Assembly (NCBI GenBank): GCA_021323675.1
Contig: JAJPKP010000070.1
Span: 147,887-211,886 of the forward strand
Reading direction: 5' to 3'
Length of the DNA: 64,000 bases
Origin: Pseudomonadota bacterium
GTDB taxonomy: Bacteria; Desulfobacterota; Binatia; Binatales; Binataceae
The notes below the pieces were generated by a model that ran no database searches, was not told the origin of the DNA, and saw only the letters and a list, made by a program, of their open reading frames with translations. A program made the translations under genes and the position numbers. Each line of letters starts with the position of its first letter. The first letter of the stretch is position 1. This document shows positions 27,684 through 63,064 of this stretch, in pieces.

Positions 27684-27956
27684 TTATTTTTCAACTCCCC
27701 CTCCGATAGCGGGAAGAAAATGGACTTCGCTTTCGTCGCCAACCGGCTCCATCGCGCCTCCAGGTCCGATTTCTCCATCGACCGAGACCGCCACTGACGG
27801 CTTGAGATCGTCTCCTTCCAGCAGATGCTGGGCAATTCCAGGAAATTGACGGTCCAGATCGGCAATTAACTCTCGCACGTTGCGGCCACGTGCAGTTATG
27901 CGCTCTTTACCGTCGGTAAATTTGCGCAAAAGAGCGGGAATCACCGCGATCGCCAT
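27684..27956 (-). CDS. MoaD/ThiS-family ubiquitin-like small protein whose C-terminus (...AIGGGVEK) extends beyond the Gly-Gly
   Basis: It shows full-length similarity to MoaD/CysO-type carriers (VIPALLRKFTDGKERIT...SVDGE...EVHFLPAIGGG). Three residues (VEK) follow the Gly run. I verified this by hand-translating the 3' end. Confidence 0.7.
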   Translation of the reverse strand: MAIAVIPALLRKFTDGKERITARGRNVRELIADLDRQFPGIAQHLLEGDDLKPSVAVSVDGEIGPGGAMEPVGDESEVHFLPAIGGGVEK

Positions 27957-28020
27957 AACTTAAAATACGGAGAGCCGGGCCTTCACGACCCGGCTCTCAT
28001 CCAGTTCGCTTCTGCGATGG

Positions 28021-30318
28021 TTAATCGGCCGCGGCCGACTGTGTTTCCTCAGCCGCGCGCTTCTTCAGGATCGCTTTGAGCAGCCGTGGCGGAGACATCG
28101 GCGTTTCAGTCATCCGTACTCCGACCGCGCGATAGATTGCGTTCGCCAGAGCCGCGGGCGGCGGAACAATCGAAACTTCGCCCACACCGCGAACTCCGAG
28201 AGGATGGCCGGGGTTGGGTACCTCGACCAAGATCGTCTCGATCAGCGGCAGATCGAGGCAGGTCGGCATCCGATAGTCGAGCAACCCAGTGTTACGCAGG
28301 ATTCCCTTTTGGTCGTAGAAGTACTCTTCGTTGAGACCCCATCCGATTCCCTGCGCGGTGCCGCCCTGCATCTGACCTTCGACATAACTTGGATGGATAG
28401 CTTTGCCGACGTCCTGAGCGATGGTGCATCGCAGGATCTGAACCTTGCCGGTATCCGGGTCGACCTCGACATCGACGCAGGTCGTGGCAAAAGCGGGACC
28501 GACGCCGCGCGCGTTTACGCTGGCGCGACCGATAATCGGACCGCCGGTACGAGCGAGCTTGGTTGCCATCTCCTTGATTGTCATCGGCGCCTTGCCTTCG
28601 GCCTTTTCTTTCAGGCTGAGCACGCCGTCGTGCAACTCAACGTCTTCAGGCTTGACCTCCCATACCTTGGCCGCACGCTCGCGCAGTTGCCGGGCGGCAT
28701 CCTGCGCCGCTTCGTACACCGCCATTCCTGTAGCGAAGGTGACGCGGCTTCCGCCGGTGACATCGGTATGTCCAATCGAATCCGTGTCGGCAACGAGCGG
28801 CCGAACGTCGGTTACCGGCAGGCCCAGCACTTCAGCCGTGATCATTGCCATCGAGGCTCGCGACCCCCCGATATCGGGCGAGCCGGTTACGACGCTGGCG
28901 GTGCCGTCGGTGTGGATGTTCACGGTGGCCGACGACTGCATGCCGGCATTGAACCAGAAGCCGGAGGCAACTCCGCGCCCGCGATAGGGGCCGCTGAGCG
29001 GAGATTTGTAATGGTCGCTGTTCTTGATCGCTTCGCAGGTTTCAATGAATCCAATGCGTCTGAACGGAGGCCCGACTACCTGCGGCGATCCCTCCTTGAC
29101 GCCGTTCTGGATTCGGAGGTCGAGCGGGTCGATTCCGCATTTCTCCGCGAGCTCATCGATCACGGTTTCGCTGGCCATCGCGGCGTTGCTGGCGCCGGGC
29201 GCGCGGTAGGCCGCGGTCTTCGGCCGGTTGACGACAACGTCGTACGCGTCGATCTGAAGGTTTTCGATGGTGTACGGAGCGAGGATGGTCATGGCGCCGG
29301 CGCCGACTGGAGATCCCGGGAAGGCGCCCGCTTCGTAAGCCATCCAGACTTGCGCGGCGACAATTTTGCCGTCGCGGGTCGCGCCCATTTTCACCTTGAT
29401 CTTCGAGCCCGAGGTCGGTCCGCTGGCGCGTAGAACCTCCGACCGCGTCATCACCAGCTTCACGGGATGACCGGTCTTCTTGGACAGCAGCACGGAAAGC
29501 GGCTCGAGGTAGATGGTGGTCTTTCCGCCGAATCCGCCGCCGATTTCCGCCGGGACAACCTTGATCTTGCCGACCGGAACGCCGAGCACCTGGGCGCTCA
29601 ACGAGCGGACATCGAAAGCTCCCTGCGTCGAGCAGTAAATCGTCGCTTGTCCGTCGGCGTTGTAGATGCCCACGGCGTTGTGGGGCTCGATGTACCCCTG
29701 ATGGACCATCGCGGTGTTGAACTCGCGCTCGACGACGTAATCGGCGGCCCTGAAGCCGGCTTCGACGTCGCCGCGCTTGAACTGGTAATGCTGCGCGACG
29801 TTGGTCTGTTTGTCGCCTTCCTCGCGATTGCGGAGATCCGGGAGCAGAATCGGCGCGCCGGGCTTCATCGCCGCGTCCACCGTCATCGCCGGTTCGAGGA
29901 CTTCGTAGTCGACTTCGATGAGCTTGAGTGCTTCTTCCGCGATATGCGGGCTGGTCGCGGCGACGGCGGCAATGGCATGGCCGTCGTAGAGCACCTTGTC
30001 GCGCGCGAGGATGTTCATCGACAAATAGTGCGGATTGATTGCCATCTCGCCCGCCTGCTCCAGCCGGTTGGCGGCCTCCGGCAGGTCGGCAGCGGTGACT
30101 ACCGCCTTCACACCCGGCAGCTTGAGGGCCTTGTCGGTCTTGATCGATTTGATCCGGGCGTGCGCGTGCGGGCTGCGCAGCACCTTGCCGAACAGCATGC
30201 CAGGGAAGGCATAGTCCGCGCCGTACTTGGCGCGGCCGATAACCTTGTCGATCCCATCGTGACGGATCGGCCGGGTGCCGATTACCTTGAACTTGCCGTT
30301 AGAAGTGGTCGCTTCCAT
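28021..30318 (-). CDS. Xanthine dehydrogenase / aldehyde oxidase-family molybdopterin-binding large subunit (CoxL-like, not form I)
   Basis: The protein is 765 aa with Mo-hydroxylase large-subunit domains. The active-site loop reads AYRAPGAS. It does not read AYXCSFR, so it is not a form-I CO dehydrogenase. Confidence 0.9.
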   Translation of the reverse strand: MEATTSNGKFKVIGTRPIRHDGIDKVIGRAKYGADYAFPGMLFGKVLRSPHAHARIKSIKTDKALKLPGVKAVVTAADLPEAANRLEQAGEMAINPHYLSMNILARDKVLYDGHAIAAVAATSPHIAEEALKLIEVDYEVLEPAMTVDAAMKPGAPILLPDLRNREEGDKQTNVAQHYQFKRGDVEAGFRAADYVVEREFNTAMVHQGYIEPHNAVGIYNADGQATIYCSTQGAFDVRSLSAQVLGVPVGKIKVVPAEIGGGFGGKTTIYLEPLSVLLSKKTGHPVKLVMTRSEVLRASGPTSGSKIKVKMGATRDGKIVAAQVWMAYEAGAFPGSPVGAGAMTILAPYTIENLQIDAYDVVVNRPKTAAYRAPGASNAAMASETVIDELAEKCGIDPLDLRIQNGVKEGSPQVVGPPFRRIGFIETCEAIKNSDHYKSPLSGPYRGRGVASGFWFNAGMQSSATVNIHTDGTASVVTGSPDIGGSRASMAMITAEVLGLPVTDVRPLVADTDSIGHTDVTGGSRVTFATGMAVYEAAQDAARQLRERAAKVWEVKPEDVELHDGVLSLKEKAEGKAPMTIKEMATKLARTGGPIIGRASVNARGVGPAFATTCVDVEVDPDTGKVQILRCTIAQDVGKAIHPSYVEGQMQGGTAQGIGWGLNEEYFYDQKGILRNTGLLDYRMPTCLDLPLIETILVEVPNPGHPLGVRGVGEVSIVPPPAALANAIYRAVGVRMTETPMSPPRLLKAILKKRAAEETQSAAAD

Positions 30319-30350
30319 AGGTATGACCTCTCTGAGCTTCGCAAGTCGTG

Positions 30351-30851
30351 TTAAGCGGCGCGGTTCGGGCGCGCTCCCGATTTCATCGCTTTGGCCGCAT
30401 CGAGCACCGCGCGAACTATCTTGTCATAGCCGGTGCACCGGCACAGGTTCCCGGCCAGCGCGTATCGGACTTCCTGTTCGGTCGGGTCGGGATTGCGGTT
30501 GAGCAGAGCGGTGGCAGACACCAGGATTCCCGGCGTGCAGATTCCGCACTGCAGGCTCGCATGTTCCAGGAACTTCTGCTGCAAGGGATGCAGCGCGGTG
30601 CCATCGGCGAGCCCCTCAACGGTACGAATATTCTTGCCCTGGGCCTCGACCCCGAGCATCAGGCACGAGCACACCGCACGCCCATCAACCAGCACGCTGC
30701 AGGCGCCGCAATCTCCGGTGAGGCATCCTTCCTTGCTGCCGGTCAGTTCGAGCACATCGCGCAGGCATTCGAGCAGGCTCTGGCGCGGTTCGCAGAGAAA
30801 CTCGACCGCTTCGCCATTGATGGTGGTTTCAACCAGCGTCTTCTTGGACAT
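30351..30851 (-). CDS. (2Fe-2S)-binding small subunit of the molybdenum hydroxylase (CoxS-like)
   Basis: It has two 2Fe-2S motifs, CLTGDCGACSV and CGICTPG...CRCTGY. Confidence 0.9.
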   Translation of the reverse strand: MSKKTLVETTINGEAVEFLCEPRQSLLECLRDVLELTGSKEGCLTGDCGACSVLVDGRAVCSCLMLGVEAQGKNIRTVEGLADGTALHPLQQKFLEHASLQCGICTPGILVSATALLNRNPDPTEQEVRYALAGNLCRCTGYDKIVRAVLDAAKAMKSGARPNRAA

Positions 30852-30872
30852 TCTTCTTTCGCCTCTTGCGCG

Positions 30873-31742
30873 TTAGCGTTTGCGGGCGCGTTCCGCCGCG
30901 ATTGTCAGGACACGCCGCGTCAGCACGCCGGTTACGTGACGTCGATATTCAGCCGTCCCGCGCATGTCATCGATGGGGGAGCTTGCCTCGCTGGCCAGCC
31001 GTGCGGCCGTCTCCAGCGCCGCGTCATCCAGCTTCTTTCCGGCCAGCGACTCCGATGCTTTCTGCGCGAACAGCGGAGTCGCGGCGACCGCGCCCAGACC
31101 GATTCGCGCGGCCTTAACCTTGTCGCCATCGAGCGTCACCGACGCGCCGACGCCGACGACGGCGATATCCATTTCGTTGCGCGGGATGAAACGCAGATAG
31201 GCATCGCTGGAGTGGGGCGCGGGAGCGGGGATCAGAAGCTGCACCAGCAGTTCCCCGGGCTTCAGCACCGTGCGTCCCGGGGACACGACGAATTCTTCAA
31301 CCGGCACTTCGCGCTCGCCGCGCGGCCCGGCGATTCGCGCCCGCGCCTTGAGCGCGATCAGCGCCGGCGTGCTGTCCGCCGCGGGGGAACCGTTGCAGAG
31401 ATTGCCTCCGACCGACGCGCGATTTTGAATCTGCAGCGATCCGATCAGGTGAGCCGCTTCGGTCAGGCCCGGGTAATTCCGGCGCATCTCCTCATTCTCG
31501 GCGATATCGATGCACGAGACTGCCGCGCCCAGCCGCAACCCTGCCCTGGCGCTAAACTTCAGCTCGCGCAACTCCTTGATCTTTTTGATATCGACGACGA
31601 ACTCGGGCTGGCGAACACCCGCGCGCATCTGGATCAGGAGGTCGGTGCCGCCGCACAACGGGCGGGCTTTCTCGCCATGCGCCTTCATCAACTTGAGCGC
31701 ATCGGCGAGCGTGGACGGAGATTCGTAGTTGAAAGCGTGCAA
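30873..31742 (-). CDS. FAD-binding medium subunit of the molybdenum hydroxylase (CoxM-like)
   Basis: It has the FAD_binding_5 and CO_deh_flav_C pattern (LCGGTDLL...). It has a GGAGG RBS. Confidence 0.85.
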   Translation of the reverse strand: MHAFNYESPSTLADALKLMKAHGEKARPLCGGTDLLIQMRAGVRQPEFVVDIKKIKELRELKFSARAGLRLGAAVSCIDIAENEEMRRNYPGLTEAAHLIGSLQIQNRASVGGNLCNGSPAADSTPALIALKARARIAGPRGEREVPVEEFVVSPGRTVLKPGELLVQLLIPAPAPHSSDAYLRFIPRNEMDIAVVGVGASVTLDGDKVKAARIGLGAVAATPLFAQKASESLAGKKLDDAALETAARLASEASSPIDDMRGTAEYRRHVTGVLTRRVLTIAAERARKR

Positions 31743-35619: not shown

Positions 35620-35788
35620 TCTCGCCGATCGCGGTCCTTTAGCGCGTCGAGGCCGTTAGCGCCCGCCTGCCAGCGGCGCGAGAAGGTCCCCGATGCACAC
35701 GGCTGCCGGGCGCATGACGCGCCCGGTTCGAATTGCCATGCAGCGGGCAACGAGCCTTCCGCATGGCCGAGAACGATAGGTGAGAAAA

Positions 35789-62242: not shown

Positions 62243-63064
62243 CTATGCTGTGAGCCGCCGCGCGCTCCAGCGCTGGAGCACATTTGCGGCGAACAGCAGA
62301 ACGGCGGAAATCAACAGCGTAACCATCGCGATCGCCGCGGCTCCCGCATAGTCGAACTGCTCGAGCTTGCTCATGATCAGCAGCGGCAGCACTTCCGTGC
62401 GCATCGGCAGGTTGCCCGAAATGAACACCACCGAGCCGTACTCGCCAATGGCGCGCGCGAACGCCAGGGTGAAGCCGGCGAGAATGGCTGGAAGCAGGGC
62501 CGGCAAAGTCACGCGAGTGAAGGCCTGGAGACGGCTCGCGCCCAACGTTGCCGCCGCTTCCTCCAGCTCGGGATCCAGATCTTCGAGGACCGGCTGCAGC
62601 GTTCGTACCACGAACGGAAGGCCGACGAAGGTCAGCGCAACCACGACTCCGGCGGGCGCGAACGCGACTTTGACTCCGAATGGAGTCAGCCATCGCCCTA
62701 TCCATCCGTTGCCGGCATAGAGCGCGGTAAGGATGATGCCCGCCACGGAAGTGGGCAGCGCGAATGGCAGGTCAACCATCGCGTCGATTGCCCCTCGCAT
62801 CGGAAAGTCGTAACGGACCAGCGTCCAGGCCACCGCCACGCCGAACGCGGAATTGATGATCGCCGCGATCGTCGCGGCGAAGAAGCTCAGCCGGCAGGCC
62901 GCCAGCGTCCTGGGAGCGGCAACGACCGCGAAGAATTCGTGAATGCCGATCGCAGCGGTCTTGAAAAAGATCGTTGACAAGGGGATCAGCACAATCACGC
63001 TCAGATACGCGACCGTGATGCCCAAAGTCAGGCCGAAGCCGGGAATTGCATGGACGCGCTTCAT
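62243..63064 (-). CDS. cysT: Sulfate ABC transporter permease
   Basis: It has the CysT/CysU-type permease fold ([21 protein letters not shown]). Its ATG overlaps the sbp stop. Confidence 0.85.

Follow-up and report, generated by a model that had tools for sequence, protein, structure and literature searches.

What does a small sulfur-carrier protein do at the end of an operon for a xanthine dehydrogenase (XDH)-family molybdoenzyme? The question arises from a 64,000-nucleotide stretch of contig JAJPKP010000070.1 from a Binataceae bacterium (hereafter the window, to which all coordinates refer), in which the genes for the three enzyme subunits M, S and L lie on the minus strand and are followed by a gene for a CysO/MoaD-type protein (hereafter the carrier). 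A first-pass annotation had described this gene as encoding a MoaD/CysO-like protein of 90 residues on the same strand, 64 bp downstream of L, had singled out the residues Val-Glu-Lys (VEK) that the product carries past a Gly-Gly (GG) motif, and had called a functional link with the enzyme speculative. The open reading frames (ORFs), with 64 bp between the L stop codon and the carrier ATG, together with Pfam, a profile search of the PDB and a structural model, bear out this description of the gene. The pairing of the carrier with the enzyme, rather than the VEK tail, is the main result of the present analysis.

A conserved M-S-L-carrier block, set among differing flanking genes, occurs in Binataceae, Chloroflexota (including SAR202-type members), Planctomycetota and numerous metagenome contigs. 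The genome search for the carrier family gave 80 loci, every one of them from a metagenome-assembled genome (MAG) of Binataceae/Binatia, and in 76 of these 80 species representatives an orthologous L gene (72‒92% identity) ends just upstream on the same strand, with S and M upstream too; the M gene precedes the carrier gene in 68 loci of Binataceae. Since the SnoaL/Usp/ADH/ECH flank that lies downstream in the window is present in just 31‒39 of 71 Binataceae loci, the conserved unit is the four-gene block. A HMMER search of the whole library returned 3,046 carrier representatives of clusters at 50% identity (E ≤ 1e-3), and a cross-phylum profile collected 3,707 carrier-family proteins, with named members in Anaerolineae, Chloroflexi and Planctomycetes MAGs. 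Relatives outside Binataceae were taken from a metagenome scan with a 12-member alignment. The gene order (M-)S-L-carrier recurs with unrelated flanks in all five contigs picked for inspection, namely an Anaerolineae genome, a Planctomycetes MAG, two Chloroflexi-type contigs and one metagenome contig. Among the module-bearing genomes that are complete or nearly so are Anaerolineae CP070818.1 and the Binataceae chromosome OY970324.1. Outside Binataceae, an L gene 55‒77% identical to that of the window ends just upstream in 57 of the 82 loci with sufficient upstream sequence, these five included, which gives a linkage of ~70% in a sample ranked by similarity to a single query. The functional link between carrier and enzyme thus receives strong support from gene linkage across phyla. 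No XDH-family-linked CysO-like carrier module was described in the literature searched.

The carrier matches the Pfam ThiS profile (PF02597) with 38.8 bits against a cutoff of 22.5 (E = 1.4e-9), its residues 6‒87 aligning with positions 3‒76 of the 76 in the profile. When the PDB was searched with a profile of the family, the best matches were CysO of A. orientalis (4n6e_B, 1e-13) and CysO of M. tuberculosis (3dwg_C, 1.6e-11), followed by a Thermus MoaD-related protein and SAMP1, and E. coli MoaD was not reached at E ≤ 1. The AlphaFold2 model of the carrier (predicted local distance difference test, pLDDT, 87.5; predicted template modelling score, pTM, 0.79) adopts a β-grasp fold. Foldseek again placed CysO first, with a template modelling (TM) score of 0.86‒0.87 and 29‒31% identity, then the Thermus MoaD-related protein, SAMP1, MoaD (TM 0.65‒0.72) and Urm1. 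Among the NCBIfam models used for equivalog scoring, the archaeal MoaD model (TIGR01687, moaD_arch) gave 27 bits against a cutoff of 49.5 and the SAMP1 model (NF041918) 29.9 bits against 60; no bacterial MoaD model was among the models listed.

The carrier family has 416 homologs of the window copy at E ≤ 1e-3. In the Binataceae ortholog set (n = 81, made up of the window copy and 80 orthologs from species representatives), 80 members share an ungapped core of 87 residues, and the median ratio of nonsynonymous to synonymous substitution rates (dN/dS) is 0.19‒0.27. Judged from these sequence comparisons, the ORF is a real gene under selection. A pseudogene or non-expressed ORF, which was suggested by the terminator-like hairpin, the missing Shine-Dalgarno sequence and the low GC content at third codon positions (GC3) described below, was rejected in view of dN/dS of about 0.2, the fixed 87-residue core and the short tails. 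Plasmid-borne candidates for cultured or annotated examples, in Burkholderia and Piscinibacter, were set aside; these MoaD/ThiS proteins are just 33‒35% identical to the carrier and do not belong to its family.

The enzyme upstream has its FAD, two [2Fe-2S] and Mo-pterin domains split over three adjoining genes, which is the M-S-L layout of the XDH/aldehyde oxidase family according to Pfam domain calls. The VAYRCSFR loop of CoxL aligns with AAYRAPGA in L, where Ala takes the place of the Cu-binding Cys, and the catalytic Glu is kept, GVGE of L aligning with the Glu of GVGE in CoxL. The form-I CO dehydrogenase model (TIGR02416) gave L 312 bits against a cutoff of 991. From these domains, scores and alignment, the enzyme is a three-subunit XDH-family molybdoenzyme and not a form-I CO dehydrogenase, in agreement with what the first-pass annotation had read from the AYRAPGAS loop. 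The closest solved relative of L is the α subunit of 4-hydroxybenzoyl-CoA reductase (1rm6, 5e-98), a nearest structure by sequence that implies no membership in that enzyme; its equivalog models were not reached (α, 445 vs 995 bits; β, 172 vs 405 bits; γ, 166 vs 258 bits). For S, the best NCBIfam match is the γ subunit of glyceraldehyde dehydrogenase, with 189 bits under a cutoff of 290, and no score of M, S or L reaches any NCBIfam equivalog cutoff.

The encoded carrier ends in ...FLPAIGGGVEK, and the GG of the window copy is accordingly not the free C-terminus of the product, as had been noticed at first. Because the ThiS profile stops at residue 87, VEK lies past the usual C-terminus of the family. 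Residues 87‒90 are disordered in the AlphaFold2 model (pLDDT < 50). The GG motif (Gly86 and Gly87) is invariant in the 81 Binataceae orthologs and in the 45-member cross-phylum alignment; in the Binataceae set it is written GGG in 72 members, AGG in five and SGG in four. Tails are present in 52 of the 81 orthologs (64%), with one residue in 23, two in 18, 3‒12 in ten and a 77-residue read-through in one, and the other 29 (36%) stop exactly at GG. Outside Binataceae, 72 of 85 relatives (85%) terminate precisely at GG. Among the best 120 of the 416 homologs, 64 end at GGG, 39 carry one extra residue, and the rest have unrelated tails of at most ten residues, except one of 24. A conserved GG-plus-extension was rejected, since the lengths range over 0‒12 residues among the orthologs with no common sequence.

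Of the existing tails, 79% have at most two residues, against an expectation of 2.5% if the present stop codon were lost, the next in-frame stop lying a median of 20 codons away. Selection therefore seems to keep the tails very short. On this comparison of orthologs, VEK is best described as a short, lineage-variable precursor tail, which is unconserved and a minor feature, and the special status given to it in the first-pass annotation does not hold. An invariant GG combined with short and freely varying tails is the pattern expected if trimming is needed to free the Gly carboxylate of a carrier. The non-carrier ubiquitin-fold role that had been offered as another explanation of the tail is disfavored by the invariant motif and by the many members ending in a free GG. 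Homologs without GG and never close to molybdoenzymes, which had been anticipated as evidence against a link, were not the pattern found; GG is invariant, and most homologs adjoin a molybdoenzyme. For annotators, these results advise caution against over-reading GG-plus-tail carriers. One Binataceae ortholog (locus L048, 6001 onward) has lost its stop codon and continues for the 77 residues past GG counted above, which may reflect a sequencing error or a decaying copy; its L match, too, did not pass the coverage filter. Three representatives of considerable length (291‒372 residues) that include a carrier domain look like read-through or mis-called genes.

The hairpin between L and the carrier gene (minimum free energy −34.2 kcal/mol, z = −4.98) looks like an intrinsic terminator or attenuator, as judged from its sequence. 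Most Binataceae loci have an equivalent hairpin 6‒15 nt before the carrier ATG, and an RNAalifold consensus of 40 loci contains compensatory changes in 11 of its 13 pairs. A Shine-Dalgarno sequence is present for M, S and L and absent before the carrier gene, and in all 76 loci compared the carrier gene has a lower GC3 than L. The hairpin, the missing Shine-Dalgarno sequence and the lower GC3 together suggest that Binataceae produce far less of the carrier than of the enzyme, and we infer that it is produced at a low level via terminator read-through. Such a level, relative to the enzyme, would be easier to reconcile with a maturation factor that is recycled than with a subunit required in stoichiometric amounts. 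In many Chloroflexi-type loci, the L match ends 10‒24 nt before the carrier gene without a hairpin. We also considered whether the carrier gene has a promoter of its own that would yield a leaderless transcript starting in the T-rich tract, but the sequence lacks a −35 element and the promoter scan was empty there. A second terminator-like hairpin past the carrier gene (Table 1) probably marks the end of the transcription unit. No Rfam family, the molybdenum cofactor (Moco) riboswitch included, was detected in or upstream of the operon; the sole match, SorY (E = 0.14), overlaps the 3′ terminator and was dismissed as chance.

We give about even weight to the reading that the carrier is a dedicated accessory of one widespread XDH-family enzyme clade and acts as a thiocarboxylate carrier for sulfur-dependent Moco maturation. 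The tail, where present, would be trimmed by a peptidase encoded elsewhere. The carboxylate of the GG motif would then be adenylated and thiocarboxylated by an E1-like enzyme of the MoeB/MoeZ type, also encoded elsewhere, and the thiocarboxylate sulfur would be used in Moco maturation of the co-encoded enzyme. The sulfur target may be either the pterin dithiolene, with the carrier as a private MoaD of the kind proposed for the MoaD genes linked to tungsten aldehyde:ferredoxin oxidoreductases (AORs), or the terminal Mo=S ligand. The case for a private MoaD loses strength through the CysO-like sequence and through the complete lack of MoaE and MoeB in the neighborhood. XDH-family enzymes need the terminal sulfido ligand for activity, and the only bacterial route to this ligand of which we know consists of XdhC-type chaperones and cysteine desulfurases. 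Nor do we know of an explanation for why some pterin enzymes, such as the tungsten AORs, have private MoaD genes.

Several observations weigh against this reading of the carrier as a maturation factor. The carrier is nearer CysO than MoaD, with moaD_arch and SAMP1 scores far under their cutoffs. About 30% of the wider family is not beside an XDH operon, and the non-linked loci whose neighbors were inspected show unrelated, non-recurrent contexts (TPR, DUF1501, DEAD helicase, TrpA, integrase). None of the 120 top-ranking homologs of an L subunit from Chloroflexi is an L-carrier (Rosetta-stone) fusion. The expected partners are also missing from the sequence searched, which comprised 1.53 Mb, namely the window and 177 carrier-family loci, with ~5‒10 kb around each related locus. 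Here, tblastn with E. coli MoaE and MoeB as queries, validated against 1fm0_E and 1jw9_B, gave zero matches for MoaE and MoeB/ThiF, and no ORF of at least 100 residues carried the JAMM motif. E. coli MoaD as a tblastn query does not detect the carrier family in the same 1.53 Mb. A motif scan of all six frames of the window gave no E1-like motif and no JAMM motif in a coding frame, matches to H-x-H...S-x-x-D occurring there just in non-coding frames, and Pfam found no JAMM or E1 protein among the unrecognized ORFs of the window that were scanned. The first-pass annotation had likewise reported no JAMM protease nearby, and the same is now seen for E1. In a census of 150 ORFs flanking 45 XDH-linked loci, which matched 93 Pfam families, the 25 most frequent families include no Moco-biosynthesis, rhodanese, desulfurase, JAMM, XdhC or PALP/cysteine synthase family, although rare partners may escape such a list; XdhC and PALP/cysteine synthase are also absent from the gene lists of ten inspected contigs. 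AOR-linked MoaD clusters, unlike the carrier loci here, often include MoeB or MoaE (PMC1779556).

As a sub-case of our favored reading, the carrier may donate sulfur specifically to the terminal Mo=S ligand and replace the XdhC/PaoD-plus-desulfurase route, which we consider rather unlikely. This matches the idea of sulfido-ligand insertion that the first-pass annotation had put forward as speculative. The carrier sits in the fourth-gene slot that, as is generally known, XdhC or PaoD holds in xdhABC and paoABCD operons, and XdhC appears neither in the census nor in the ten gene lists. MoaE is nowhere nearby, though a MoaD role would predict some, the catalytic Glu that is characteristic of sulfido-type hydroxylases is retained in L, and the carrier is linked to the enzyme clade and not to Moco genes. 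This donor role has no precedent, however, with nothing relevant in the literature searched on thiocarboxylate and the Mo sulfido ligand; XdhC could be encoded elsewhere in these genomes, and many XDH-family operons without an adjacent xdhC manage without a carrier. Equally tentative is the idea that the thiocarboxylated, flexible GG tail of the carrier enters the substrate funnel of the assembled enzyme and installs or repairs the Mo=S ligand, in an extreme version re-supplying sulfur at every turnover for Mo-dependent C-S bond formation. If true, direct delivery of the Mo=S sulfur by a carrier would be an XdhC-independent sulfuration route undescribed in any organism.

A part in metabolite chemistry seems to us improbable. 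The carrier would then donate sulfide, in the manner of CysO, for a thiol or thioacid product, or would hold a GG-X adduct intermediate, in a pathway that uses the XDH-family enzyme. Its nearest characterized relatives are indeed the CysO proteins of cysteine and 2-thiosugar synthesis, its one-residue tails (Ala, Ser, Arg, Thr and others) resemble JAMM substrates of the CysO-Cys type or, presumably, the HcyS-Ala type, and the window holds CysH (376‒1197) and sulfate transporter genes (62243‒63897, the latter assigned by eye). Yet no CysM, ThiG, BexX-like protein, AMP-ligase or JAMM partner recurs nearby, M, S and L being the only constant neighbors, and the sulfate genes are 26‒35 kb off, outside the conserved block. 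We see even less reason to favor a non-catalytic β-grasp subunit, like TmoB of toluene monooxygenase, or a ubiquitin-like modifier of the SAMP/Urm1/TtuB kind, either of them acting without thiocarboxylate chemistry. The short distance between L and the carrier gene in many Chloroflexi-type loci, the lack of an E1 gene nearby and the blocked C-terminus encoded by 64% of the Binataceae orthologs would suit such a protein, but conjugation would likewise require E1, and the invariant, mostly free-ending GG points to C-terminal activation. The hairpin, the missing Shine-Dalgarno sequence and the low GC3 in Binataceae also speak against stoichiometric expression, and MoaD-like AorD and AorE are absent from purified AOR (PMC6365974). 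The least probable explanation in our view is a general-purpose housekeeping MoaD/CysO that is merely inherited beside the operon with no specific link. It would account for the ~30% of the wider family in unrelated contexts and would agree with the molybdopterin synthase sulfur carrier label given to these proteins by JGI pipelines, and the window does encode another pterin-requiring molybdoenzyme (43574‒45829). Against it, the adjacency of carrier and enzyme outlasts complete turnover of the flanks and spans at least three phyla, and canonical MoaD usually travels with MoaE, MoaA and MoaC (PMC1779556), none of which was seen near the carrier loci.

Among known systems, CysO is the best profile and fold match of the carrier. 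The CysO proteins of M. tuberculosis (Rv1335; 3dwg/3dwm) and A. orientalis (BexX complex, 4n6e) share with it a similar length (89‒93 residues), the N-terminal IPxxLR..T.G motif and the C-terminal LPA(V/I)xGG. CysO is generally known to end at GG and to sit with cysM and mec, whereas the present carrier has VEK and the neighbors M, S and L, with no CysM or JAMM nearby. Cysteine-synthase/JAB neighborhoods have been listed (PMC1779556). The closest parallel is the MoaD gene strictly adjacent to tungsten AOR genes, for which a role in pterin synthesis for AOR has been proposed (PMC1779556). In Aromatoleum aromaticum, the MoaD-like products of aorD and aorE, not found in the purified enzyme, are putative maturation factors (PMC6365974). 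The two cases have in common a MoaD/ThiS-type gene fixed in the operon of one pterin-dependent oxidoreductase across distant lineages. They differ in that AOR is a W bis-pterin enzyme and the present enzyme an XDH-family Mo-pterin enzyme, that AOR clusters often contain MoeB and sometimes MoaA or MoaE, none of them found at the carrier loci, and that the carrier subfamily is CysO-like and below the moaD_arch cutoff.

MoaD of E. coli (1fm0) has the β-grasp fold and C-terminal GG in common with the carrier and works in the sulfur chemistry of the Mo cofactor, but no MoaE adjoins the carrier, and sequence searches do not connect E. coli MoaD with the carrier family. With the chaperones of the XdhC/PaoD/CoxF type, the carrier shares only the end-of-operon position and the presumed role; their fold is unrelated. 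These chaperones are needed once per enzyme molecule for insertion of the sulfurated cofactor. We take HcyS-Ala, with HcyD, to be a further JAMM-trimmed precursor to which the carrier can be likened. Better known are the JAMM-cut GG-plus-tail carriers QbsE-CF, processed by QbsD, and CxnE with its decapeptide, processed by CxnF, in which the post-GG residues must go before adenylation (PMC5925218). The present carrier too encodes post-GG residues, but the QbsE and CxnE clusters encode their own JAMM protease, and none is present in the window or around the 177 carrier loci. Enzyme-linked MoaD-type genes and GG-plus-tail precursors are thus already known kinds, and the XDH-linked CysO-like carrier module is, within the literature searched, the new part. 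It forms a self-contained four-gene module in Binatia, Chloroflexota, Planctomycetota and many soil and marine metagenomes, and is compact enough for direct testing.

Table 1. Features of the four-gene module and its surroundings, in window coordinates.
Feature	Position	Strand	Basis and remarks
M subunit, FAD-binding, 289 aa, first gene of the module	30873‒31742	−	Pfam FAD_binding_5 (7e-48), CO_deh_flav_C (4e-29)
S subunit, two [2Fe-2S] domains, 166 aa	30351‒30851	−	Pfam Fer2_2 (6e-31), Fer2 (4e-6)
L subunit, Mo-pterin binding, 765 aa, AAYRAPGAS loop, catalytic Glu in GVGE	28021‒30318	−	Pfam Ald_Xan_dh_C, MoCoBD_1, MoCoBD_2
CysO/MoaD-type sulfur-carrier (β-grasp) protein, 90 aa, 9.5 kDa, fourth gene	27684‒27956	−	Pfam ThiS
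Codons Gly85-Gly86-Gly87, holding the invariant GG of the family	27696‒27704	−	Read from the sequence
Codons of the Val-Glu-Lys tail past GG	27687‒27695	−	Read from the sequence; stop codon 27684‒27686
GC-rich 12-bp hairpin, then T-rich tract to ~27960	27970‒27998	−	Terminator scan; element ends 13 nt before the carrier ATG
Second terminator-like hairpin, 12 pairs (9 GC), T-run tail CTTTTTTTCC, ~120 nt past the carrier gene	27538‒27565	−	Terminator scan
Weak sigma-70-like promoter match directly upstream of M	31749‒31776	−	Consensus scan alone, 9/12 matches; no evidence of function

The genes that accompany the module vary between lineages. In Chloroflexi-type loci (L096, 10466‒13983; L097, 10354‒12631), the genes after it encode a DHDPS-family aldolase, a hydrolase and an enolase-superfamily MR_MLE protein. 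The commonest neighbor families in the 45-locus census, with 4‒5 members each, are DHDPS, MR_MLE, Ala_racemase_N with D-ser_dehydrat, Dabb, Exo_endo_phos and α/β hydrolases. The Chloroflexi-type neighbors may hint that the enzyme oxidizes aldehydes from acid-sugar or amino-acid catabolism, perhaps ones released by an aldolase. For aldehyde oxidation as the reaction of the enzyme, these DHDPS and enolase-superfamily neighbors and the sub-cutoff similarity to glyceraldehyde dehydrogenase give only a hint. In one Binataceae clade (L008, 8353‒12670, on the same contig as L037, and ~25 other loci), the carrier gene is followed by genes for an FAD_binding_3 monooxygenase, a glyoxalase-fold protein and a second L paralog, which is ~67‒71% identical to the window L and lacks its own M/S or carrier. 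Most carriers of this clade stop right at GGG.

The XDH operon of the window is immediately preceded by an APH-type phosphotransferase gene (31932‒33371, −) and an acyl-CoA dehydrogenase gene (33214‒34404, −), a pair kept upstream in many Binataceae loci. We take it to resemble a split version of the kinase and acyl-CoA dehydrogenase domains of ACAD10/11. The true start of the kinase is probably further downstream, because the longest-ORF call overlaps the acyl-CoA dehydrogenase gene.

The second molybdoenzyme of the window (−) is of the bis-molybdopterin guanine dinucleotide type (Pfam Molybdopterin, Molydop_binding and Fe4S4), and its presence implies that the organism needs pterin cofactor beyond the XDH-family enzyme. 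About 12 kb from the XDH operon, genes for a MOSC_N+MOSC protein (14346‒15347, −) and a macro-domain protein (15298‒15819, −) adjoin each other; MOSC is the domain found at the C-termini of Moco sulfurases. Both ends of the window carry genes of sulfate assimilation. At 73‒1197 (+), a phosphoadenylyl-sulfate/adenylyl-sulfate (PAPS/APS) reductase identified by Pfam follows a sulfite-reductase-like fragment, and at 62243‒63897 (−) there are ORFs resembling the permease and binding protein of a sulfate ABC transporter, the fragment and the transporter ORFs being assigned by eye. Two large adjoining ORFs (7560‒14293, −; 1152 and 1092 residues) look by eye like a helicase-nuclease pair of the AddA/AddB type. 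At 35780‒41704 (+), an outer-membrane factor, a CusB/CzcB-like adaptor and a 1045-residue resistance-nodulation-division (RND) pump make up a heavy-metal-type efflux operon, with families taken from Pfam matches on the syntenic contig L005 and the pump recognized by eye.

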